The notes beneath the pieces were generated by a model. It had not been told where the DNA came from and did not search any database. It saw nothing but the letters and a program-made list of their open reading frames with translations. Below are positions 2,760 to 21,588 of a stretch of 64,000 nucleotides of DNA, in pieces. The position numbers and the translations under genes are program-made. This DNA comes from Escherichia phage vB_EcoM-LTH02. The DNA lies in sequence record PP430346; one strand, 5' to 3'. The stretch's first letter is position 1. The number at the start of each line of letters is the position of its first letter.

Positions 2760-3323
2760 ATGAAATGCTATCACGGAACTACCCTCAAAAACTTTGTAAA
2801 CCTGCTGAATGGTGGCGACAAGCCGGAAGGAATCTGGAACTGCTCATACATGGATGATTGTTTCTACGTTTACCCAATGAACAAGATTATCAAAACGGAA
2901 TGTCTGGAAGATGAGGAAGATTCTTACATTCGTGAACGCTGCATTCAAAACGCTTTAGAATCTGGGCTTATTACGGCAGCTTTCCAAATGGAAACGCAGG
3001 ACGTAATTGTCATTGAGATGGATATCCCAGAGGAAGAGCTAGAGGATGATTATTCTTGTGACAACATGAGCGATATCGCCAGCTTTACCGGACACTTTGA
3101 TAAAGGTTGGATTATTGGCCTTCACTCGACGAAATTTAGTGCGATGTATGCACCTTTCTTTGTACCAGATGCAACTAACCGCAATTTAGGCTATGTTGAC
3201 GATGATTTGTTAAGTATGGCGAAAATTGTACAGAATAGCGGTGATAGTTCCGTGTTTTGTGACTTGCTGGATAAAATCACGGCAAACATCACAGAGCGCA
3301 ATTTAAAAGACTTTTTAGGTTAA
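2760..3323 (+). CDS. hypothetical acidic early protein (187 aa)
   Basis: Conserved leader; product rich in D/E (EEELEDDYSCDNMSD, YVDDDLL). Confidence 0.6.
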   Translation: MKCYHGTTLKNFVNLLNGGDKPEGIWNCSYMDDCFYVYPMNKIIKTECLEDEEDSYIRERCIQNALESGLITAAFQMETQDVIVIEMDIPEEELEDDYSCDNMSDIASFTGHFDKGWIIGLHSTKFSAMYAPFFVPDATNRNLGYVDDDLLSMAKIVQNSGDSSVFCDLLDKITANITERNLKDFLG

Positions 3324-5448: not shown

Positions 5449-5486
5449 TCGACGCAGCGGGGCTAAATAGCCCCAGATACCTTCAA

Positions 5487-5511
5487 AGCTCCTTTTCATA
5501 GGGGCTTTTTT
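5487..5511 (+). terminator. intrinsic terminator closing the early cassette
   Basis: Stem AGCTCC/GGGGCT with loop TTTTCATA followed by TTTTT; a second hairpin GGGGCTAAATAGCCCC sits at 5459-5474. Confidence 0.55.
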
Positions 5512-5977
5512 ACGTCTTATCGAATCTCTATACAATCCTTTCCCTTTCCTTCCCAGAATCTTACTAGACCTTAAAAGCAATAACTCTATAGCTTACTCTA
5601 TAACCTTTTATCAAATCAACTTAAATATAAGCCCATAACCCGAAAGGGAAGGGCAACCGTTTAAACGCTCTATAAAGCTCTATAACAGCCTTATCAACCT
5701 AACTTAAGGGATTGCATTAACTCACCCTTAAAAGCCCTTTATAAAGCTTCCTAGAGCCTTAAAAGAATCTTATAAGGGTGTAAGCTTTATCATCTCGTTA
5801 GCTATCTTGTGAACTACTAAAAATGGCTTGTTAGTGTCTTAAAAGTATGCTATAGGGGCTATAAAGTTACTCCAAAGTTACGTGAAAGGGGCTATAAAGT
5901 TACGTAAATGCTAGCCCCCTTAACATTTCTTTAACAATTTCTTAACAATCCCTACATAGTTATGCTTTTAAGGAACT

Positions 5978-7050
5978 TGTTAGCAACTTGTTAGCCCCTT
6001 GTTAAATCTTTGTTAAGACCACGTAAAAGCCTTGTAAGAGTCTTTGACATAGCCTTAAAAGCCCCTGTAAAGCCCTATAAATAGGTATCTGTACAGTTGG
6101 GGTGTAATTACTAGGAAGAGGCTTAAAAGAGCTTACAAAGAGCTATAGAGAGCTTTTAAGAGGGCTATTTAGAGAATCACTAAGAGGGAAAGGGAACGAT
6201 AAGAAAGAGATAGTGACCATGTTAATAGCTTGTTAAAAAGATTAAACACTTGTTAGAAACTTGTTAATTATCTTAACAAAATAACTCATAAAAATTAACT
6301 TGTTAGCTCTTGTTAGTCATCTGTTAAGAGACTATAAAGACCATGTAGCAACTGTTAAGAACTTGTTACAGCCTTGTTAGTTCTGTTAAGAGTCTGTTAA
6401 GACCTCTGAAGAGATGTTAAGAGGTTGAGAGAGTTGTTAAGAGATTGTTAATGATATTTTAAAATTCTGCAAAGGGGATGTTACAGGGATGTTAAGGGCT
6501 ACCAAGCAGATATACACCTTCTACAGATATTTTTGAGTTCCTTCAAAGACCCTAAAAAATGACTTGATAGTCCTATTTTATAAAAATTTTAAAATTCTGA
6601 ATAATTACCTAAACAGTCTTTTAAAAATACAGGCATAAACAGGCTTATAAGATACCTTGTTAATACCGTGTTAGACCTTGTGAGATAAGGTCTGTAAAGA
6701 TATTCCTGTTAAGTTTGTTAAAACAGTCTATATAGAGGCTTAGTAATACCTAGTGAACACCTATAGAGGGTAACATAGCTAACATAATGGGTTACTGTTA
6801 AGTAACACAGGTAACCTAGAGATTAAGAGGTGTATAGGGGCTTCTAAGAGGCTATAGAGAGATGGTTAAGGTGATTGTATAGGTTGTTAAGAAGGCTTGT
6901 TAGAAGGCTTGTTAGAGGGCTATTTAGAAGGTTTATACAGAAGGCTATTAAGACCACTAGATAGATACTAAGATACTATATAGTACTATATAACTATATA
7001 TAGAGAGTAAGCTTAAGAAGGTTGTTAAGAAGGATAGATATTTTATTCAC
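5978..7050. repeat. iteron-like array of TGTTA(A/G) repeats (more than 30 copies, one orientation, about 10-11 bp phasing)
   Basis: Copies at 6251, 6262, 6301, 6311, 6322, 6353, 6364, 6375, 6384, 6395, 6415, 6435, 6446, 6490 and further copies 5978-6030 and 6650-7050; spacings are 9-11 bp or multiples; no ORF above the track cutoff in 5581-7161. Confidence 0.7.
6968..7006. repeat. AT-rich block with three tandem ACTATATA units
   Basis: ATACTATATAGTACTATATAACTATATATAGAG; possible DNA-unwinding element next to the iteron array. Confidence 0.45.
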
Positions 7051-15069: not shown

Positions 15070-16485
15070 ATGAGCGAGTTATTTAAACATGCGCACCTTC
15101 ATGCAGGTCGAACTGAAAATGGTGCTGTAAACCATACTTCATCAATGTCTGCTCTGGTAGACTTCTACAAAGCCGCTGGCTCAAGCCGTAGTAATGTAGA
15201 AATCTTACCAGACCTGTTCTACAAAGCTTTGCGTGAGGATGTTGATGTTGCAGTTCGTATTTTACTGCATATGCGAGATGTACGAGAAGGTATGGGTGAG
15301 CGTAAAGCTTTCCGAACTGTTTTACTTCAAGCGATTGAAGATAAGTTTTTAGAGCCTACACAGGTTCTTCGCATTATGGATAAGATTGTAGAACTTGGTC
15401 GTTTTGATGACTTCAAAATCTTCATAGGTACTCGTTTTGAGACAGATGCCTTCAAACATTTAGAAGCAGCATTACTAGACCCTGCAACAGCAGGTTTAGC
15501 AGCTAAGTGGTTACCACGAGTAAAACCACGCCACAAACAGTTTGTAAAACGTTTCTGTAAGTTTGCAAACTTAAGCGAGAAAGAGTACCGCACACTGTTA
15601 TCTGCACTGTCTGATACGGTTGAGCAAAAAATCTCTGCTAATGAGTTTGGTAAGATTGACTACAGCAAGATTCCTTCACTCGCTGCTGCACGTTACCAAA
15701 AGCTCTTTAACCGTAAAGATGGGGAACGTTACAAAGCTTATATCGAGTCACTCTCAAAAGGTGAGGCTAAGATTAACGCTGGTGCTGTTTACCCATACGA
15801 TGTGATTAAATCTATTAAGTATGGTAATGCAGATGTTGCTAATGAGCAGTGGAAAGCACTTCCAAACTGGATGGCAGAAGGTGAAAACATCTTGTGTATG
15901 ACTGATGTTTCAAGCTCAATGTCTTGGGTGAATCTTGGCTCAATTACTGCCCTTGATATTGGTGTATCACTTGCCTTATATGTAGCAGAACGCAATACAG
16001 GTTGCTTTAAAGATGAGTTAATGGTCTATTCAACAAACCCTCATTTCATTGAACTGAGTGGTGATTTACGAAACCGTCATCGTCAGGTAATGCGTCATGT
16101 TGAATATGGTTCAACTAACTTACAAGCAGCTTTTGACCGTATTCTTGAGATAGGTAAGAGAAACAACTTGACTCAGAAAGATATGCCAAGTAAGCTTATC
16201 ATCTTCTCCGATATGGAGTTCAATCAGGTTGATGGAGCTAACGGTCGTACAAACTTTGAAGCAATTCAGAGTAAGTACAAAAAAGCTGGATATGAGATGC
16301 CACAACTAGTATTCTGGTACTTAGCAAACCGTAATGGTACTTGCGAAGTGTCTGTTAAGGATAATGGTGTAGCAATGGTATCAGGGTTCTCTCCAGCCAC
16401 TTTAAAAGCTCTGCTTGGTGGTGAGAAGTTTGACCCAATCAGCGTAATGCTCAAAGCAGTAATGATTGACCGTTACATCTGGTAA
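15070..16485 (+). CDS. vWA-domain protein with MIDAS motif, possibly Ro60/TROVE-like
   Basis: 471 aa; MIDAS D-x-S-x-S in ILCMTDVSSSMS followed by a vWA-like C-terminal region; N-terminal helical region with TENGAV...SALVDFY; gene lies immediately upstream of the tRNA array. The vWA call is from sequence; the Ro60/TROVE assignment is from my memory of the family and its position, not a search. Confidence 0.55.
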   Translation: MSELFKHAHLHAGRTENGAVNHTSSMSALVDFYKAAGSSRSNVEILPDLFYKALREDVDVAVRILLHMRDVREGMGERKAFRTVLLQAIEDKFLEPTQVLRIMDKIVELGRFDDFKIFIGTRFETDAFKHLEAALLDPATAGLAAKWLPRVKPRHKQFVKRFCKFANLSEKEYRTLLSALSDTVEQKISANEFGKIDYSKIPSLAAARYQKLFNRKDGERYKAYIESLSKGEAKINAGAVYPYDVIKSIKYGNADVANEQWKALPNWMAEGENILCMTDVSSSMSWVNLGSITALDIGVSLALYVAERNTGCFKDELMVYSTNPHFIELSGDLRNRHRQVMRHVEYGSTNLQAAFDRILEIGKRNNLTQKDMPSKLIIFSDMEFNQVDGANGRTNFEAIQSKYKKAGYEMPQLVFWYLANRNGTCEVSVKDNGVAMVSGFSPATLKALLGGEKFDPISVMLKAVMIDRYIW

Positions 16486-16495
16486 AAAGTTTTAA

Positions 16496-16527
16496 AAAGG
16501 GTATTGACAATGTGTTTGATACCCTTT
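16496..16527 (+). promoter_or_regulatory. hairpin (AAAGGGTAT/ATACCCTTT) after the vWA gene with an embedded TTGACA
   Basis: 9-bp inverted repeat enclosing TTGACA at 16504-16509. Confidence 0.4.
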
Positions 16528-16594
16528 AATATGTTCTACATAGAAACGAAATGAGAGCTTTTCTAAGATACTGAAAAATATTTTAAAAAAGTTC

Positions 16595-16623
16595 TTGACA
16601 ACCACTAAAAAATAATGTTAAAG
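16595..16623 (+). promoter_or_regulatory. candidate promoter of the tRNA operon (TTGACA-17-TTAAAG)
   Basis: TTGACA 16595-16600, 17-nt spacer, weak -10 TTAAAG; first tRNA begins at 16651; flanked by inverted repeat AACCACT/AGTGGTT. Confidence 0.45.
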
Positions 16624-16650
16624 TGGTTACATAGAGTTTGAAAAGTTTAT

Positions 16651-16727
16651 CTCTGTTTAGCTCAGCTTGGTAGAGCGTTCCGTTTGGGGCGGTAAGGCCG
16701 GAGGTTCAAGTCCTCCAACAGAGACCA
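16651..16727 (+). tRNA. tRNA-Pro (anticodon TGG)
   Basis: Cloverleaf by eye: acceptor CTCTGTT/AACAGAG, D GCTC..GAGC, anticodon loop TTTGGGG, T-arm GGAGG-TTCAAGT-CCTCC, CCA encoded. Confidence 0.75.
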
Positions 16728-16734
16728 AATTAAT

Positions 16735-16812
16735 GTTCCAGTAGACAAAATGGTAAAGTCACCACTCTTTCAAAGTGGATATTTGAGGGTTCAAATCCCT
16801 TCTGGAACGCCA
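16735..16812 (+). tRNA. tRNA-Glu (anticodon TTC)
   Basis: Acceptor GTTCCAG/CTGGAAC, anticodon stem CCACT/AGTGG with loop CTTTCAA, T-loop TTCAAAT, CCA encoded. Confidence 0.75.
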
Positions 16813-16819
16813 GTTTTGA

Positions 16820-16892
16820 CAGAAGACCAATTGCAGCAAACTTAATCTTATTCATCTGACACGAAATCGGACAAAGAAGAGATTTGGTCTGG
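16820..16892 (+). ncRNA. structured element of the AGACC/GGTCT stem family (a)
   Basis: 5' CAGAAGACCAA-TTGCAGCAA ... TTGGTCTGG 3'; terminal 7-bp stem AGACCAA/TTGGTCT; lies between tRNA-Glu and tRNA-Met. Confidence 0.45.
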
Positions 16893-16903
16893 TCATTAAG
16901 AAT

Positions 16904-16980
16904 TGCGGGTATAGAGAAAGGGCGTCTCACATGTCTCATTAGCATGGTATCGGCAGGTTCGACTCCTGCACCCGCCTCCA
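16904..16980 (+). tRNA. tRNA-Met-like (anticodon CAT), irregular
   Basis: Anticodon stem CATGT/GCATG with loop CTCATTA, D-stem GAGA/TCTC, T-arm GCAGG-TTCGACT-CCTGC, 3' ACCCGCC-T-CCA; the acceptor pairs only with a T1/C72 mismatch or an extra nucleotide before the D-stem. Confidence 0.5.
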
Positions 16981-16986
16981 ATTTTG

Positions 16987-17046
16987 CAGAAGACCGTATT
17001 CAGCAACAAACTACTTTTTGCGGATAAAAGAAAAAACACGGTCTGG
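16987..17046 (+). ncRNA. structured element of the AGACC/GGTCT stem family (b)
   Basis: CAGAAGACCG-TATTCAGCAA ... CGGTCTGG; stem uses CG where elements a and c use CAA/TTG (compensatory change). Confidence 0.45.
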
Positions 17047-17057
17047 CAATGTATTAA

Positions 17058-17134
17058 GGTTAGGAAGCACATAAGGTATGTGCGGTCGCCTGTTAAGCGA
17101 ATGGCACAGGGTTCGAATCCCTGACTAACCGCCA
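17058..17134 (+). tRNA. tRNA-Asn (anticodon GTT)
   Basis: Acceptor GGTTAGG/ACTAACC, D GCAC..GTGC, loop CTGTTAA, T-arm CAGGG-TTCGAAT-CCCTG, G-CCA. Confidence 0.75.
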
Positions 17135-17143
17135 AATTTAAAT

Positions 17144-17231
17144 GTGTCGTTATCCCGTAGATGGTAGCGGTGGGGACTGTAAATCCCTTGTCATTGAGAC
17201 TCGGTAGGTTCGACTCCTACACGGCACACCA
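17144..17231 (+). tRNA. tRNA-Tyr (anticodon GTA), class II
   Basis: Acceptor GTGTCGT/ACGGCAC, loop CTGTAAA, long variable arm, T-arm GTAGG-TTCGACT-CCTAC, A-CCA. Confidence 0.7.
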
Positions 17232-17237
17232 AATAAA

Positions 17238-17315
17238 GGTTATGTAGTTTAATCTGGTTAAAATACTCCCCTGTCACGGGAGATGATGAGGGTTCAAATC
17301 CCTTCGTAACCGCCA
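17238..17315 (+). tRNA. tRNA-Asp (anticodon GTC)
   Basis: Acceptor GGTTATG/CGTAACC, anticodon stem CTCCC/GGGAG with loop CTGTCAC, T-loop TTCAAAT, G-CCA. Confidence 0.75.
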
Positions 17316-17402
17316 AATTATAATAAGTATTTCAAGATGATGTTTTGAGAGGGCTATTTAGCCCCTCCCTTAAAGAGTTCTTACGAGTATTCTTTAAAGG
17401 AG

Positions 17403-17479
17403 CAGAAGACCAAATTCAGCAAGTACGTATGATATTTTCAAGCCAATTTAATTTTGAAAAAATTTAAAACTTGGTCTGG
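17403..17479 (+). ncRNA. structured element of the AGACC/GGTCT stem family (c)
   Basis: CAGAAGACCAA-ATTCAGCAAG ... TTGGTCTGG; internal hairpin TTTTCAA...TTGAAAA. Confidence 0.45.
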
Positions 17480-17492
17480 CTCAACAAATTTA

Positions 17493-17624
17493 CAGAAGAC
17501 CGTTTACAGCAAAACTTAAACAATCTATTTCTCCGGTAAAGAAAAGGCGAAGGTTCGATTCCTTCACTCGGCAGATGTCGAGTTGGTGTAATGGTAGCAC
17601 TTAAGATGATAAACAACGGTCTGG
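17493..17624 (+). ncRNA. YrlA-like (Y-RNA-like) candidate: terminal stem plus circularly permuted tRNA-like module
   Basis: Terminal stem AGAAGACCGTT (17495-17504) / AACGGTCT (17615-17622); inside, in this order: hairpin TTTCT-CCGGTAA-AGAAA (17528-17544), canonical T-arm GAAGG-TTCGATT-CCTTC (17549-17565), closed acceptor-like stem ACTCGGC-AGAT-GTCGAGT (17566-17583), D-arm GTGT-AATGGTA-GCAC (17586-17600). Confidence 0.55.
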
Positions 17625-17631
17625 TAATTAT

Positions 17632-17763
17632 CTTTGTAGATAAGTTATTAAGCTTACCTGTGAGTATGCGACCACAAAGGGTGAAAGGGTAAATTCTAGA
17701 TTTAAACCCAACAAGGCACATCGCTACAGACCTTAAGCAAGTCTGGGTAGCTTATCTACAAAG
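17632..17763 (+). ncRNA. structured region closed by a 13-bp long-range inverted repeat
   Basis: CTTTGTAGATAAG (17632-17644) pairs with CTTATCTACAAAG (17751-17763); encloses hairpin CAGACC-TTAAGCAA-GTCTGG (17726-17745). Confidence 0.4.
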
Positions 17764-17773
17764 ATAATTTAAT

Positions 17774-17849
17774 GGAAGTGTAGCAGAATGGTGATGCGGC
17801 AGACTTTTAATCTGACAGGCGATGGGTTCGAATCCCTCCACTTCTACCA
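17774..17849 (+). tRNA. tRNA-Lys (anticodon TTT)
   Basis: Acceptor GGAAGTG/CACTTCT, loop CTTTTAA, T-loop TTCGAAT, A-CCA; T-stem weak (3 bp). Confidence 0.65.
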
Positions 17850-17853
17850 ATAT

Positions 17854-17930
17854 GGTTCAGTCGCAGATAAGGTAATGCAAGGGTCTCATAAACCCTATGA
17901 ATGTGGGTTCGATTCCCATCTGAACCTCCA
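17854..17930 (+). tRNA. tRNA-Met or Ile2 (anticodon CAT)
   Basis: Acceptor GGTTCAG/CTGAACC, anticodon stem AGGGT/ACCCT with loop CTCATAA, T-arm GTGGG-TTCGATT-CCCAT, T-CCA. Confidence 0.75.
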
Positions 17931-17931
17931 A

Positions 17932-18007
17932 GCTGGTATAGTTAAGAAGGTTATAACACTCCCCTGATAAGGGAACATCGGTGGTTCGATTCCACCTACC
18001 AGTACCA
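17932..18007 (+). tRNA. tRNA-Ile (anticodon GAT)
   Basis: Acceptor GCTGGTA/TACCAGT, D GTTA..TAAC, loop CTGATAA, T-arm GGTGG-TTCGATT-CCACC, A-CCA. Confidence 0.75.
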
Positions 18008-18022
18008 ATTTCAATAAAGTTG

Positions 18023-18051
18023 TTGACATTGAGATGTGACCACTTTATAGT
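18023..18051 (+). promoter_or_regulatory. internal promoter in the tRNA region (TTGACA-17-TATAGT)
   Basis: TTGACA 18023-18028, 17-nt spacer, TATAGT 18046-18051; about 200 nt non-tRNA leader follows before tRNA-Arg. Confidence 0.6.
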
Positions 18052-18254
18052 AACCTTAGTTTTCGTTGCGTAGCGTCTATTTTGCAAATTTAAAATAAAT
18101 GCAAACGACAATGTTTTTCTGGCAGTAGCTTGATAGGCTAAACACCAGTGAGGTCTTCCAATCCCTCATCAAAGAATTTGGCGTACTCGCCCACGGTATG
18201 ATTAATAAGGTGGGCATCTTTAAGGGCTTTCTAAGAGAGTCTTTAAAGATTAAT

Positions 18255-18331
18255 GCACCCTTAGTTCAATTGGATAGAGCAACGGTCTTCTAAATCGTTA
18301 GTTACAGGTTCGAATCCTGTAGGGTGTGCCA
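18255..18331 (+). tRNA. tRNA-Arg (anticodon TCT)
   Basis: Acceptor GCACCCT/AGGGTGT, D GTTC..GAGC, loop CTTCTAA, T-arm ACAGG-TTCGAAT-CCTGT, G-CCA. Confidence 0.75.
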
Positions 18332-18473
18332 AATAGTTAGCAGATTGCTTAGACGACCTTATCGGGTCTCCGTGTAAGGAGGTGGTCTGTATCTCATGTT
18401 TTCCAGAACATGTAAATAATCTGAGAAGGGGCTTTACAGTGTTGCGAAAATACGGTAAGCTTCGAATTATAGT

Positions 18474-18556
18474 GTGGGACGATGTTAAGACTCTAAGGCA
18501 TGAGCAACGGCCTCCAAAACCGTTTCAAAGGGGTTCAACTCCTCCGTCCCATGCCA
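18474..18556 (+). tRNA. tRNA-like, possibly Trp (anticodon CCA), irregular
   Basis: Acceptor GTGGGAC/GTCCCAT, T-arm AGGGG-TTCAACT-CCTCC, G-CCA; anticodon arm ACGGC-CTCCAAA-ACCGT; 9 nt instead of 2 between acceptor and D-stem, total 83 nt. Confidence 0.4.
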
Positions 18557-18569
18557 AAGTCTTATTAGG

Positions 18570-18659
18570 GGTAGGTAGCGGCTAATGGTAGCCAAACTGT
18601 CTTGAAAACAGTTGCCACTGTAGAGATACGGTGAGGGTTCGACTCCTTTACTTACCGCC
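18570..18659 (+). tRNA. tRNA-Ser (anticodon TGA), class II
   Basis: Acceptor GGTAGGT/ACTTACC, anticodon stem ACTGT/ACAGT with loop CTTGAAA, long variable arm, T-arm GAGGG-TTCGACT-CCTTT; 3' end reads G-CC-T, so CCA is not fully encoded. Confidence 0.7.
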
Positions 18660-18814
18660 TAATAAGATTTAAAGCCAAGCTTCATTCGGATGTTGCTTTG
18701 GTATCCCTCGTGTATTGTCGTACACGCACAGTAAAGCACCTAGTAGGTGTCACGGAGAAGAGATAATATCAAGCTCTCCAAAGGTTCTAGTCACCGGATT
18801 AAACAAGACTATGC

Positions 18815-18836
18815 AAAGACCAAATTAGGTCTTTTT
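18815..18836 (+). terminator. terminator-like hairpin using the AGACC/GGTCT stem
   Basis: AAAGACC-AAATTA-GGTCTTT followed by TT. Confidence 0.4.
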
Positions 18837-18915
18837 AGAGGGCTTCTAAGGTTATTACAGCTTGTTGTGGAACCTTGTTGCTTAGGTTCTTAGAAGTTCT
18901 CTAAAAAGATTTAAT

Positions 18916-18992
18916 GCACCTATAGCCCAATTGGTAGAGGCAGCAGACTTAGAATCTGCTCAGTGTGAGTTCGAATCTCTCTAGGTGTACCA
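18916..18992 (+). tRNA. tRNA with anticodon TAG (Leu by anticodon; short variable arm)
   Basis: Acceptor GCACCTA/TAGGTGT, anticodon stem GCAGA/TCTGC with loop CTTAGAA, T-loop TTCGAAT, A-CCA; 77 nt. Confidence 0.65.
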
Positions 18993-18999
18993 AATTAAT

Positions 19000-19075
19000 G
19001 CAGGTGTAGCAAAATGGTTATGCGGCTGACTCTTAATCAGTAAGACGATGGGTTCAATTCCCTCCACCTGTACCA
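19000..19075 (+). tRNA. tRNA-Lys (anticodon CTT)
   Basis: Acceptor GCAGGTG/CACCTGT, loop CTCTTAA, T-loop TTCAATT, A-CCA; paralog of tRNA-Lys(TTT). Confidence 0.65.
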
Positions 19076-19081
19076 AACATT

Positions 19082-19157
19082 GGGGATGTAGTTTACATGG
19101 TTAAAACATAAGTTTTGCAAACTTAAGTACAGGGTTCAATTCCCTGCTTCTCCACCA
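19082..19157 (+). tRNA. tRNA-Ala (anticodon TGC)
   Basis: D GTTT..AAAC, anticodon stem TAAGT/ACTTA with loop TTTGCAA, T-arm CAGGG-TTCAATT-CCCTG, 3' CTTCTCC-A-CCA. Confidence 0.7.
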
Positions 19158-19163
19158 ATTAGT

Positions 19164-19238
19164 GCATCCATAGTTTAAACGGGAAAATTACAGTCTTCCA
19201 AACTGAGGTTGAGGGTTCGATTCCCTCTGGATGCTCCA
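19164..19238 (+). tRNA. tRNA-Gly (anticodon TCC)
   Basis: Acceptor GCATCCA/TGGATGC, loop CTTCCAA, T-arm GAGGG-TTCGATT-CCCTC, T-CCA. Confidence 0.75.
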
Positions 19239-19244
19239 AACAAT

Positions 19245-19321
19245 GCTGCTTTCGTATAATTGGCTATTACACATCCCTTGTAAGGATGGAAATGCAGGTT
19301 CGAGTCCTGTGAGCAGCACCA
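19245..19321 (+). tRNA. tRNA-Thr (anticodon TGT)
   Basis: Acceptor GCTGCTT/GAGCAGC, anticodon stem CATCC/GGATG with loop CTTGTAA, T-loop TTCGAGT, A-CCA. Confidence 0.75.
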
Positions 19322-19325
19322 ATTC

Positions 19326-19411
19326 AGAGGTCAAGTGAAAGACCGCTGGTGTCAACTGAAGACCGTAACAAATTCCACGGAGTTGAGTTAGCGGCACAAC
19401 TTCAGACCTCT
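19326..19411 (+). ncRNA. multi-stem structured element between tRNA-Thr and the next tRNA
   Basis: Nested stems AGAGGTC (19326-19332) / GACCTCT (19405-19411); CCGCT (19343-19347) / AGCGG (19390-19394); TCAACT (19352-19357) / AGTTGA (19381-19386); apical loop carries GAAGACCGTAACAAATTCC, related to the 5' arms of elements a-d. Confidence 0.45.
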
Positions 19412-19416
19412 TCCAT

Positions 19417-19491
19417 ACTCGCTTAGTTTATATGGTAAAACACCACCCTTACAAGATGAAGAAAAAGGTTCAAGTCCTTTAGTGAGTACCA
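19417..19491 (+). tRNA. tRNA-like, anticodon probably TAC (Val); weak anticodon stem
   Basis: Acceptor ACTCGCT/AGTGAGT, D GTTT..AAAC, T-arm AAAGG-TTCAAGT-CCTTT, A-CCA; anticodon region CCACC-CTTACAA-GATGA forms only 3 of 5 pairs. Confidence 0.45.
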
Positions 19492-19492
19492 T

Positions 19493-19570
19493 GTTCCAGT
19501 ATCCCAATTGGCAGAGGATGCAAGCTCAAACCTTGTACTAGTGACGGTTCGAATCCGTCTTGGAACACCA
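19493..19570 (+). tRNA. tRNA with anticodon CAA (Leu by anticodon; short variable arm)
   Basis: Acceptor GTTCCAG/TTGGAAC, anticodon stem GCAAG/CTTGT with loop CTCAAAC, T-arm GACGG-TTCGAAT-CCGTC, A-CCA. Confidence 0.65.
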
Positions 19571-19575
19571 ATTTT

Positions 19576-19651
19576 GCAGGATTAGTTCAAATGGATAGAG
19601 CAACAGTCTACGAAGCTGTTAATAGGGGTTCGAATCCCTTATCCTGCGCCA
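19576..19651 (+). tRNA. tRNA-Arg (anticodon ACG)
   Basis: Acceptor GCAGGAT/ATCCTGC, D GTTC..GAGC, loop CTACGAA, T-loop TTCGAAT, G-CCA. Confidence 0.75.
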
Positions 19652-19670
19652 ATTTAAAGAGGCTATTTAG

Positions 19671-20228
19671 ATGAGATATTTGAAGTATGCTTCATGGATT
19701 TTCTTAGCTTTGTTAGAGCCATTTGCAGCAATCTTAGCAGTTATCTTAGCACCTTTCGTAGTTCCATTTTACAGTGAGAAGAAAGGACACTTACCTTTCG
19801 GATTTAGATGGATGGAAACTTACGACAACCCGATTGATGGTGATGAAGGTCACGTCAAACGATGGGCTAAGATTAGAAAGATTGGTAAGCTTGGTATCTA
19901 TATGCAGAGAGTCGGTTGGCTCTGGAGAAACAAAGCTTATAACTTCTCTTATCATGTGTTAGGAAGAGATGTGAAAGATGTTACTAAGTGGAAAGGTAAT
20001 ATTAATGTAAGTTCTAACCCTGAAGATAATCAGACAGGTTATCTCCTAATGTGGAACAGTAATGCTTGGGGATTATTCGCTTTTATCCCATCAATTAAAG
20101 TCTTTGGTAAACAATTCTACTGGAGAATTTATGTTGGATGGAAACTTAAAAGTGTTGTCCCAAAAGAAAGAGCATTCTCAAGGGAAAGAGTTATGTTGGC
20201 ATTCTTTATTCATCCACTAAGAAAGTAA
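19671..20228 (+). CDS. hypothetical Trp-rich membrane-anchored protein embedded in the tRNA array (185 aa)
   Basis: ATG at 19671 with SD in AAGAGGCTATTTAG; N-terminal hydrophobic helix WIFLALLEPFAAILAVILAPFVV. Confidence 0.55.
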   Translation: MRYLKYASWIFLALLEPFAAILAVILAPFVVPFYSEKKGHLPFGFRWMETYDNPIDGDEGHVKRWAKIRKIGKLGIYMQRVGWLWRNKAYNFSYHVLGRDVKDVTKWKGNINVSSNPEDNQTGYLLMWNSNAWGLFAFIPSIKVFGKQFYWRIYVGWKLKSVVPKERAFSRERVMLAFFIHPLRK

Positions 20229-20236
20229 AGATTTAA

Positions 20237-20312
20237 AGGGGATTAGTTTACAAGGTTAAAACCTCGGTCTTTGAAATCGAAGAAGTTGGTTCAATTCCAA
20301 CATCCCCCGCCA
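20237..20312 (+). tRNA. tRNA-Gln (anticodon TTG)
   Basis: Acceptor AGGGGAT/ATCCCCC (A1/C72 mismatch), D GTTT..AAAC, anticodon stem TCGGT/ATCGA with loop CTTTGAA, T-arm GTTGG-TTCAATT-CCAAC, G-CCA. Confidence 0.7.
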
Positions 20313-20314
20313 AT

Positions 20315-20393
20315 GCTCCATTACTCCAATTGGCAGAGAGGCCAGACTTAAAATCTGTGTTATGTATCGGTTCGAATCCGATATGGAGTACCA
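20315..20393 (+). tRNA. tRNA with anticodon TAA (Leu by anticodon; short variable arm)
   Basis: Acceptor GCTCCAT/ATGGAGT, loop CTTAAAA, T-arm ATCGG-TTCGAAT-CCGAT, A-CCA. Confidence 0.6.
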
Positions 20394-20398
20394 AATTT

Positions 20399-20474
20399 AG
20401 CGGTATAGCATAACTGGCAATGCAGCAGTCTCTGAAGCTGTCTTATTAAGGTTCAAATCCTTATGCCGCTGCCA
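20399..20474 (+). tRNA. tRNA-Gln (anticodon CTG)
   Basis: Acceptor AGCGGTA/TGCCGCT, D GCAT..ATGC, loop CTCTGAA, T-arm TAAGG-TTCAAAT-CCTTA, G-CCA. Confidence 0.7.
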
Positions 20475-20505
20475 CTTCTAAGGGTTCTTACGAGAGTCCT
20501 TAAAT

Positions 20506-20581
20506 GTGGCCTTATCATAAAAGGTAATGACCCATGCTGTGAACATGGTCTATACGGGTTCAAATCCCGTAGGTCACCCCA
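20506..20581 (+). tRNA. tRNA-His (anticodon GTG)
   Basis: Acceptor GTGGCCT/AGGTCAC, D TCAT..ATGA, anticodon stem CCATG/CATGG with loop CTGTGAA, T-arm ACGGG-TTCAAAT-CCCGT, discriminator C then CCA. Confidence 0.75.
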
Positions 20582-20586
20582 ATTTA

Positions 20587-20663
20587 TAGTCCAAGTAGCT
20601 TATATGGTTAAAGCGCGTGTCTGAAAAACATGAGAAGAGGGTTCAAATCCCACTGGACTACCA
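20587..20663 (+). tRNA. tRNA-Phe-like (anticodon GAA), irregular acceptor/D junction
   Basis: D GCTT..AAGC, anticodon stem CGTGT/ACATG with loop CTGAAAA, T-loop TTCAAAT; acceptor TAGTCCA/TGGACTA pairs perfectly but leaves a nonstandard junction and 3' end. Confidence 0.55.
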
Positions 20664-20679
20664 ATTTCAAAGGTGCTTA

Positions 20680-21414
20680 ATGAAAGAGATGACAGAACAA
20701 GGTAAGGAGATTTTTAATCTCTTAAAAACCGGTAGAGGGTTTTCTAATCCCCTTATTACTGGTGCAGCAGTTCTCGGTGGAACCGTAGCTGCCTCTACAT
20801 CACTTGTAAGCTCTATTAGCTCTGTAACAGACCCTACAATAAAAGATAAGCTTATTGCTGCTGGACTTACAACAGTTCTGCTTAATAGCTTTACAACGAG
20901 TCTGACAAGCACTACATCAACCACTAAGACATTGACAGATTACGGTCAAAAATCAATTGATGAGTTTTCATCACGTATGCAGGTAGCAAAAGGATATTCC
21001 AATGTTATGGGTGCAGCAGGAGAGCAAGTTGGTTGTACACCATTTAGTGGTATTATGGGTGTTGCTACAGAGTATGGTCAAAAAGCTATTGACACAATTA
21101 ACAGCACACTAGACAGTGTTAACGGTGTGTTAAGTGACTTACAGGATGCTATTGATGAAGGTCTTGATACCATTTCTGATTTAGCTAACCAAGCTGTTAG
21201 CAAGATTAATGAAGGTATCTCAAAGATTACAGCTTATGCAGATGAAGTTGTGCAGATGATTGAAGAAGAAGCTGCCCTTATTGCAGAGTACCTTAAAACG
21301 AATATCAATGGGTTCTTAGCAGGTATCTTACCAGACTGGTTTGATGATGCTTGTAAAACTGGTGTAATTGATACTATTGCAACACCAGAAATGAAGAACG
21401 CATTACAGAAATAA
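20680..21414 (+). CDS. hypothetical Ser/Thr-rich protein (244 aa)
   Basis: ORF track 20617..21414 starts at GTG inside tRNA-Phe; moved to ATG at 20680; stop lies 1 nt before tRNA-Ser(GCT). Confidence 0.55.
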   Translation: MKEMTEQGKEIFNLLKTGRGFSNPLITGAAVLGGTVAASTSLVSSISSVTDPTIKDKLIAAGLTTVLLNSFTTSLTSTTSTTKTLTDYGQKSIDEFSSRMQVAKGYSNVMGAAGEQVGCTPFSGIMGVATEYGQKAIDTINSTLDSVNGVLSDLQDAIDEGLDTISDLANQAVSKINEGISKITAYADEVVQMIEEEAALIAEYLKTNINGFLAGILPDWFDDACKTGVIDTIATPEMKNALQK

Positions 21415-21415
21415 T

Positions 21416-21508
21416 GGAAGATTAACCCTAAAAGGTAAGGGAGCAGTTTGCTAAACTGCCAGTAGCTGAGAAATCGGTGTACCAGTTCAAGTCTGGTATC
21501 TTCCTCCA
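21416..21508 (+). tRNA. tRNA-Ser (anticodon GCT), class II
   Basis: Acceptor GGAAGAT/ATCTTCC, anticodon stem GCAGT/ACTGC with loop TTGCTAA, long variable arm, T-arm ACCAG-TTCAAGT-CTGGT, T-CCA. Confidence 0.7.
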
Positions 21509-21512
21509 ATTT

Positions 21513-21588
21513 GAATCCGTGACAGAAATGGCTATGTGCCTGTCTGCAAAACAGGTTTATAAGGGTTCGAGTCCCTTCGGATTCTCCA
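21513..21588 (+). tRNA. tRNA-Cys (anticodon GCA)
   Basis: Acceptor GAATCCG/CGGATTC, anticodon stem CCTGT/ACAGG with loop CTGCAAA, T-arm AAGGG-TTCGAGT-CCCTT, T-CCA. Confidence 0.75.

Follow-up and report, generated by a model that had tools for sequence, protein, structure and literature searches.

Four structured elements between the tRNA genes of a Felix O1-like phage

We analysed a 64,000-nucleotide (nt) stretch of DNA from Escherichia phage vB_EcoM-LTH02 (record PP430346; hereafter the window), a region 98% identical to Felix O1-like phages (Felixounavirus, Ounavirinae). It carries 26 tRNA genes (ARAGORN), all on the + strand at 16651-21588, and, stopping 166 nt ahead of the first of them, a gene for a Ro60-like protein. 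Four short structured elements, here called a to d, lie among the tRNA genes 330-1140 nt downstream of the protein gene and on the same strand (Table 1). An earlier model-made reading without database searches (the sequence-only reading) had described them as members of a family of AGACC/GGTCT-stemmed elements, and this description stands: the motif CAGAAGACC-N5-CAGCAA occurs in the window exactly four times with 0 mismatches (16820, 16987, 17403 and 17493), each time with a matching GGUCUGG downstream, and all four copies share one fold and are syntenic, in the same tRNA gaps, in 17 Ounavirinae sources (those whose loci extend far enough).

Table 1. Positions of the Ro60-like protein gene, the promoter-like sites and the four elements in the window
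Feature	Position	Strand	Description
Ro60-like protein gene	15070-16485	+	471 amino acids; Pfam DUF2828 and DUF7788/von Willebrand factor A (vWA); DVSSS as MIDAS (metal ion-dependent adhesion site)
Two sigma-70-like promoter sites	16504-16532, 16595-16624	+	consensus scan, 10/12 matches each, TTGACA -35 boxes
Element a	16817-16895	+	tRNA-Glu/tRNA-Met gap; outer helix 16817-20/16892-95, stem 16824-30/16884-90, CAGCAA 16834-39
Element b	16984-17049	+	tRNA-Met/tRNA-Asn gap; outer helix 16984-87/17046-49, stem 16991-97/17038-44, CAGCAA 17001-06
Element c	17400-17482	+	after tRNA-Asp; outer helix 17400-03/17479-82, stem 17407-13/17471-77, CAGCAA 17417-22
Element d	17490-17627	+	outer helix 17490-93/17624-27, stem 17497-504/17615-22, CAGCAA 17507-12; tRNA-like insert
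Element d, V hairpin	17528-17544	+	UUUCU-CCGGUAA-AGAAA (fold)
Element d, T arm	17549-17565	+	canonical, GAAGG-UUCGAUU-CCUUC (fold)
Element d, closed acceptor hairpin	17566-17583	+	7 base pairs and tetraloop, ACUCGGC-AGAU-GUCGAGU (fold)
Element d, D arm	17586-17600	+	GUGU-AAUGGUA-GCAC (fold)

The common plan begins with an outer helix of four base pairs (bp), the sequence of which is different in every copy with complementarity kept (UGAC/GUCA, UUGC/GCAA, GAGC/GCUC and UUAC/GUAA in a to d). Inside it lie an asymmetric internal loop (5' AGA, 3' G) and an inner stem of 7-8 bp, in which AGACC extended by AA, GU, AA or GUU (a to d) is paired with the complement followed by GGUCU. The 5' strand of this stem is followed by two or three unpaired bases (UUG in a, AUU in b and c, UA in d; mostly UUA in other phages), an invariant CAGCAA and a variable insert; at the far end, a G next to the 3' strand completes a 3' CUG. 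In element b the insert is an inner hairpin with the loop UGCGGAU, and the same hairpin is found in element 1 of mycobacteriophage LilDestine.

Co-variation of the closing pairs, proposed by the sequence-only reading, was right in substance, its strings having taken in the final C/G of the constant part. In addition, the outer helix co-varies, both among the four paralogues and within orthologous element b, where UUGC/GCAA alternates with UUAC/GUAA in sequences chosen by the constant motif and not by pairing. Single-sequence folding energies of the four elements are unexceptional (z-scores of -0.75 to -1.94), and the case for them therefore rests on comparative evidence.

The two sigma-70-like sites between the protein gene and the first tRNA, which are consensus matches with no enrichment over shuffled sequence, are the likely start of a transcript carrying the tRNAs and the elements. 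No terminator-like site was found on the + strand before 21718, save a hairpin at 16496-16527 that overlaps the first promoter-like site, and this arrangement fits co-transcription of the elements with the tRNAs.

Elements of the same plan accompany the protein gene across phages

The comparison covered Klebsiella phage FBKp34, Mycobacterium phage LilDestine, five more annotated phages and 80 loci from IMG/VR. A register test was applied over 89 sources, which asked whether the seven bases at -10 to -4 before each CAGCAA find, within 170 nt, a partner with which all seven pair. Near the gene and on its strand 159 of 259 CAGCAA passed (61%), as against 9/87 inside the gene (10%), 14/74 farther away (19%) and 27/279 on the opposite strand (9.7%). 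At least one in-register element, stem plus CAGCAA, stands beside the gene and on its strand in 69 of the 89 sources, and the hosts of element-bearing phages include enterobacteria, Aeromonas, Campylobacter, Listeria and Mycobacterium. FBKp34 and LilDestine have three elements each, built on the same plan with wholly different stems (GAAGNU... vs UGGACNC...) around an invariant (U/A)ACAGCAA. Covariation across related phages, which had been suggested as a check on the four elements, is seen at both distances: the outer helix of element b switches compensatorily among close relatives, and the stems are conserved as structure in distant phages.

The elements lie downstream of the gene in Felix-like, Klebsiella and Mycobacterium phages, and upstream of it, in up to seven copies, in phages of Listeria, Campylobacter and Aeromonas. 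Many loci have elements without tRNA genes nearby (for example L003, L028, L031-L035, L039, L046, L071 and L076), which indicates that the elements track the protein gene and not tRNA clusters.

A covariance model, R1, was built from 38 diverse short elements with the consensus W-G-R-N4-N3-CAGCAA ... N4-Y-C-Y-G. All seven stem pairs change on both sides among these members, with 109 double-change cells, a count that describes the family but is no proof of it, as the members had been selected for pairing. Run over both strands of 561,699 nt with a cut-off of E<=0.1, R1 returned 79 matches, every one of them on the gene strand; they come from 48 of 71 sources, and many lie outside the training set. 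Across the 64-kb window it matches elements a (16818-16896, 38.2 bits, E 2.9e-4), b (16985-17050, 39.4 bits) and c (17401-17483, 35.1 bits) only. Some inserts are kept over great distances, such as the UGCGGAU loop of b and AAGCCAAUU of c, the latter recurring in locus L077.

The protein encoded upstream models as a Ro60-fold ring

The product of the gene upstream of the tRNAs is matched by Pfam DUF2828 and DUF7788, with a further sub-threshold match to VWA_2, and falls into PHROG 850, annotated as 'RNA-binding protein'. An AlphaFold2 (AF2) model made from 31 homologues has a mean predicted local distance difference test (pLDDT) score of 87, with residues 1-262 all-helical and residues 274-464 alpha/beta. 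When this was compared with the PDB by Foldseek, the top 11 matches were all Ro60, over the full length (E 6e-8 to 2e-6, template modelling (TM) scores of 0.48-0.64), among them Xenopus Ro60 (2i91, 1yvr, 1yvp), Ro60 of Thermus phage phiLo (9kop and 9l5y, ranks 2 and 3) and Rsr of Deinococcus radiodurans (2nvo). The MIDAS residues D279, S281 and S283 (DxSxS) are invariant among homologues. The protein accordingly models as a Ro60-fold ring, a predicted HEAT-repeat ring followed by a C-terminal vWA domain with a MIDAS.

One phage collection has full-length homologues in 709 records, from hosts as different as Escherichia, Salmonella, Klebsiella, Vibrio, Aeromonas, Campylobacter, Listeria, Staphylococcus, Enterococcus, Bacillus and Mycobacterium, and those of mycobacteriophages are annotated 'Ro-like RNA binding protein'. 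In the literature DUF2828 is otherwise known from plant genes and mimivirus-like sequences. In Felixounavirus Bas63, gp130, described as 'structurally similar to Ro60' and encoded directly upstream of tRNAs, counters the Ppl defence (PMC11482910, a 2024 preprint). The authors of that work guessed that some annotated tRNA genes could be Y RNAs and did not identify the spacer elements. We regard the window gene as the orthologue of gp130 on the basis of their description and the conserved gene order of Ounavirinae, rather than of an alignment.

A tRNA-like module in element d

Among the inserts of the four elements the sequence-only reading had also recognised a full tRNA-like module, and this was borne out. 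Such a domain is present in d and absent from a, b and c, and comprises a V hairpin, a T arm, a closed acceptor hairpin and a D arm (Table 1). Element d is a tRNA with joined acceptor ends, in which the anticodon stem is replaced by the element's own stem; its V/T part gives a partial Rfam tRNA match of 22 bits. One element in each of FBKp34 and LilDestine has a tRNA-like insert as well. When 16 long members from different phages were aligned with MAFFT on sequence alone, three helices came back in RNAalifold, namely those of the T arm, the closed acceptor-like hairpin and the D arm, with compensatory changes in 13 of 16 pairs. The tRNA-like module is therefore general within the family and has the architecture of YrlA Y RNAs.

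At 5462-5641 of locus L011, in one close relative, the T arm of element d is joined to the 3' part of tRNA-Lys. Missing there are the rest of d, the long hairpin (17625-17773 of the window) and the tRNA's 5' part, and recombination between T arms appears to have caused this deletion. FBKp34 (L002, 8003-8116) has a complete 114-nt tRNA-Asp(GUC) with an insert of ~38 nt between the D and anticodon arms; this insert, AACUUCU-UAG-AGAAGUU-UUACAGCAU, is a locally closed stem plus UUACAGCA module within a real tRNA.

Proposed role of the elements

We suggest that the four elements are probably small noncoding RNA genes of one family and the cognate partners of the Ro60-like protein encoded upstream, that is, that the phage encodes a Ro60-Y RNA ribonucleoprotein. 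The element family is absent from Rfam 15 and from the searchable literature, and Rfam at gathering thresholds, applied to the window and three related loci, returned tRNAs and no other family. A transcript starting at the promoter-like sites (~16504 and ~16595) would carry both the RNAs and the tRNAs, and the RNAs would be freed by processing of the flanking tRNAs, with RNase P cutting at the 5' end of the next tRNA and 3' trimming after the preceding CCA setting the other end of the element. The module recognised by the protein may consist of the terminal stem, with the conserved AAG...CUG at its ends, and the unpaired (U)UACAGCAA by the 5' strand, and would stand in for the Ro-binding stem of Y RNAs. 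The variable insert could then serve as an effector module, a YrlA-type tRNA mimic in d and a UGCGGAU-loop hairpin in b. Most likely the particle would act on RNA, probably tRNA, during infection, within counter-defence.

Several observations weigh against this proposal. The link of the protein to Ro60 is at the level of fold only, as it failed at the level of sequence: a profile search of the PDB gave E 0.15 and Pfam TROVE (PF05731) did not match. The Ro-binding motif GNCGAAN0-1G/CGAA is absent from all four elements, which have NNN-CAGCAA instead, and the Rfam YrlA model has no match to element d of the window at E<=10. An exact in-register element is absent in 20 of the 89 sources, some of which are recovered by R1, and deletion of element d in L011 shows that it is dispensable there. 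Further to that, gp130 alone, in T7 or from a plasmid, restored growth on Ppl hosts without phage RNAs (PMC11482910), so that either the anti-Ppl activity needs no phage RNAs or host RNAs can substitute for them. What the analysis shows is the family with its structure and covariation, its genomic coupling to the protein gene and the modelled Ro60 fold of the protein; binding of the RNAs to the protein, their processing and their function are what we infer.

Should the proposal be correct, the DUF2828 (PHROG 850) family of phage proteins gains a concrete and testable set of candidate RNA partners, and the 'Y RNAs' of Felix O1-like phages, previously only guessed at among the tRNA genes, are now assigned to candidate sequences.

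Alternative explanations

We consider it unlikely that the elements instead act on their own, independently of the protein, as decoys or sponges that tie up host factors (tRNA-targeting nucleases or tRNA-modifying enzymes, for instance). Mimicry of a tRNA by element d would suit such a role, as would the link between phage tRNA clusters and evasion of anticodon nucleases (cited in a passage of PMC11482910) and the activity of gp130 in T7 without the RNAs. However, decoys of this kind leave unexplained why the same stem and CAGCAA module is found in elements without a tRNA-like part, and why it follows the DUF2828 gene across phyla. The sequence-only reading had proposed 'Y-RNA-like decoys': the Y-RNA-like half of that phrase is strongly supported by the Ro60-fold neighbour, the tracking of its gene across phyla and the YrlA-type module, while the decoy half is not.

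It is quite unlikely that the elements are cis-regulatory sites or leaders in the mRNA of the DUF2828 gene itself, bound by the protein in autoregulation, rather than separate RNAs. They are always on the gene strand and often directly upstream of its start codon (in Listeria L007, Campylobacter L006 and Aeromonas L005), and KVP40-like Vibrio phages (L004, L024 and L025) have a single AAGACAUUUUACAGCAA in the 5' untranslated region of the DUF2828 gene (~2964-3000), just before the ribosome-binding site; this copy has no convincing 3' partner and may itself be an autoregulatory site. Nevertheless, the elements come after the stop codon in the window and in the phages of Klebsiella and Mycobacterium, and in the window promoter-like sites and tRNA genes separate them from the gene. 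A locus can have up to seven copies, the tRNA-like domain in one copy has no obvious cis role, and the amoebal RNAs with the same signature, discussed below, are free and abundant.

It is very unlikely that the elements work without a partner protein as structural spacers of the polycistronic tRNA precursor, be it to guide processing, as insulators or as hairpins for pausing or termination. In favour of this, all four lie exactly between tRNA genes, 7-12 nt from the tRNA ends, and 27 of 60 loci outside Ounavirinae have tRNA genes no more than 3 kb from the protein gene, without exception on its strand. The many element-bearing loci without tRNA genes argue against it, as does the fact that a spacer hairpin needs neither an invariant single-stranded CAGCAA nor conserved AAG/CUG ends. 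No U-tract follows the elements, none of the four coincides with a terminator-like call on the + strand, and most tRNA junctions in the cluster measure just 1-10 nt and hold no element; the idea of processing or termination signals, raised in the sequence-only reading, is thus not upheld.

Finally, spread of small mobile or repeat units (such as miniature inverted-repeat transposable elements) within the tRNA region, also raised before, is highly improbable: there are four similar copies within 800 bp and a neighbouring hairpin (17625-17773) that behaves as a presence/absence insertion, but the elements keep fixed syntenic positions across the Ounavirinae loci examined, show neither target duplications nor, apart from the stem, any terminal inverted repeats, carry unrelated inserts, differ from each other exactly where pairing allows, and share with members in other phages only structure and a 9-nt motif.

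Other structured features of the tRNA cluster and of related loci

Three further sites had been attached to the family in the sequence-only reading and were rejected as members. The supposed minimal versions at 17726-17745 and 18815-18834 have no CAGCAA, no R1 match and weak or unrelated folds. The first, CAGACC-UUAAGCAA-GUCUGG, is the tip of a 149-nt hairpin insertion and is identical wherever present, hence uninformative; the second belongs to a conserved plain hairpin (18813-18838, AAAGACC-loop-GGUCUUU), in which, among relatives, the loop varies freely and the stem shows G-U changes. The element at 19326-19411 is a structured one (z -3.0) in which GAAGACCGU-AACAAAUU occurs, but it has neither CAGCAA, a GGUCUG partner nor an R1 match. 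The 149-nt hairpin itself (17625-17773) is near-perfect, with a 24-bp perfect terminal inverted repeat and a z-score of -5.85. It was found unchanged in 10 Felixounavirus loci, while L001, L011, L018-L021 and L023 lack it; this is the pattern of an insertion or deletion, possibly of a mobile one.

Between tRNA-Asp and element c (17316-17402) there are three adjacent hairpins that fold far more stably than shuffled sequence (z -4.7). Inside the tRNA cluster, at 18023-18254, is the best promoter-like site of the region (TTGACA-17-TATAGT, 18023-18051), followed over ~200 nt by weak tmRNA-like (transfer-messenger RNA) Rfam matches with E 0.002-0.003, far under threshold. A tRNA-like sequence at 18476-18553 has the acceptor GUGGGAC/GUCCCAU, discriminator G, an encoded CCA, an over-long D region and the anticodon loop CUCCAAA (CCA = Trp), the stem being closed by a C-A mismatch. 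It was not called by ARAGORN and was matched in Rfam only by tRNA-Sec (23 bits); it may be a divergent tRNA-Trp.

Other RNA-related features were found near the DUF2828 gene in relatives. In Listeria phage VAfA18 (L007) the DUF2828 gene and its three elements are preceded, ~640 nt ahead of the first element, by a ROOL RNA-like match (1427-1978; 89.8 bits vs a threshold of 99.1), and an RtcB-type RNA ligase gene (5700-7019) lies 1.2 kb downstream. Within 3 kb of the gene, two uncultivated viral contigs encode, respectively, a phage tmRNA (L062, 806-1210) and a tRNA with anticodon CUA, called tRNA-Pyl and of the amber-reading type (L068, 5919-5994).

Resemblance to Dictyostelium Class I RNAs

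One Rfam family other than tRNA, tRNA-like families and YrlA repeatedly matched the elements, namely RF01414 (Dicty Class I), in two scans that covered 17 loci (133 kb, both strands) with 4227 families. There were 11 weak matches of 23-32 bits, all on the gene strand and with ends 1-7 nt from the ends of the element stem. In the window, element b (16992-17045) scored 21.4 bits and d 12.8 bits, and two LilDestine elements were also matched; with the best phage score at 31.9 bits, the elements range over 12-32 bits, under the gathering threshold of 41.5. The Rfam consensus of RF01414 reads GaUcuC-CUUACAGCAA-...-GagAuC-UG.

Class I RNAs are 42-65 nt long, with a 6-bp terminal stem conserved in structure and not in sequence and a variable remainder (Kjellin et al. 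2021, PMC7919456). Beside the 5' strand they carry an 11-nt CCUUACAGCAA with near-invariant U3, C6, C9, A10 and A11, and they end in AAG...CUGU (PMC7919456). They are free and abundant, and were reported as tied to multicellularity and as unique to Dictyostelia, the social amoebae, in a study that searched no phage (PMC7919456). Our comparison drew on 37 of their sequences. They have had no known function since 2004, and their sole proven binder is the RNA recognition motif protein Rnp1A/CIBP.

Both groups have a short terminal stem whose sequence varies with compensatory changes, and directly 3' of its 5' strand stands a UUACAGCAA-like motif, which in the phages is N1-3 plus CAGCAA and mostly UUACAGCAA. 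The ends are AAG...CUGU in amoebae and AAG...CUG(U/A/G), mostly CUGU or CUGA, in phages; in the genomic sequence of the window, the ends predicted for the RNAs read cagAAGacc...ggtCUGg. In both, the variable remainder is A-rich, frequently with RGAAA(A)C(C) as its last bases before the 3' strand, there are many copies per genome, and the length is ~45-80 nt, a figure that for the phages refers to short members. By contrast, the amoebal stem has 6 bp and a 4-nt linker as against 7 bp and 3 nt in phages, and each amoebal RNA is encoded by a gene of its own with an upstream promoter element (DUSE), a context not seen in the phages. Within the motif, CAGCAA is invariant in the elements, U3 is present in a and d and absent from b and c, and the linker falls short of the amoebal one by 1 nt.

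A sequence-only profile of the phage elements aligns to 19 of 21 amoebal RNAs, from the motif into the interior, whereas 1.4% of shuffled sequences align. At 6.8 bits or more it matches 10 of the 21, against 1 of 21,000 shuffles; the amoebal RNAs being close paralogues, these scores amount to few independent data points. We conclude that there is a strong resemblance between the two groups, and that shared ancestry is not demonstrated.

It is quite possible, although we stop short of calling it probable, that the phage elements and the Class I RNAs form one family with the common job of partnering Ro60-like proteins of the DUF2828 type. Under this one-family reading, DDB_G0281243, a protein of no known function and one of four pulled down with DdR-21, a Class I RNA, is the obvious candidate for the partner of Class I RNAs. 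Motif searches of partial proteomes from a paper's supplement gave nothing relevant to a dictyostelid DUF2828 protein or to DDB_G0281243, a literature search on these two points yielded a single preprint, and in the literature searched no paper mentions Class I RNAs together with Y RNAs. If the reading is true, Class I RNAs would be Y-RNA-like with relatives in phages, and one would expect RNA partners of this sort for the DUF2828 proteins of eukaryotes and giant viruses as well. A 20-year-old orphan RNA class would thereby gain a candidate protein partner, a mechanism and an evolutionary origin.

Comparison with bacterial YrlA and phiLo Y RNAs

YrlA is a tRNA-mimicking Y RNA with V-T-acceptor stem (AS)-D order, encoded beside bacterial Ro60 and on the same strand (Chen et al. 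2014, PMC4201824; RF02553). The phage elements likewise adjoin a gene for a Ro60-fold protein on its strand; their 5' and 3' ends pair in a stem that replaces the anticodon stem; the insert of element d has the order V hairpin, T arm, closed acceptor-like hairpin and D arm; and the shorter partners without a tRNA-like part (a, b and c) are comparable to YrlB. Among the relatives, the Rfam YrlA model scored 39.6 bits (E 3.5e-5) on an FBKp34 element, 21.7 bits (E 0.026) on a LilDestine element and 32.9 bits in a further case, all far under the gathering threshold of 69 bits. The two systems differ in that the phage protein is DUF2828 and not Pfam TROVE, that the phage motif is (U)UACAGCAA after a 7-bp stem instead of GNCGAAN0-1G, and that the window has four copies embedded in a tRNA operon.

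Another parallel is Thermus phage phiLo, whose Ro60 binds the adjacently encoded Yrl1 and Yrl2 and can also recruit the host polynucleotide phosphorylase (PNPase; PMC12135203). There, as in the window, a Ro60-fold protein is phage-encoded and small RNAs are encoded beside its gene; the phiLo protein, however, is a recognisable TROVE protein, its RNAs have the CGAA motif, and there is no tRNA operon. If the window elements do partner their neighbouring protein, Ro60-Y RNA biology would be extended to a second recognition code, a stem plus UUACAGCAA, within which tRNA-mimic modules recur.

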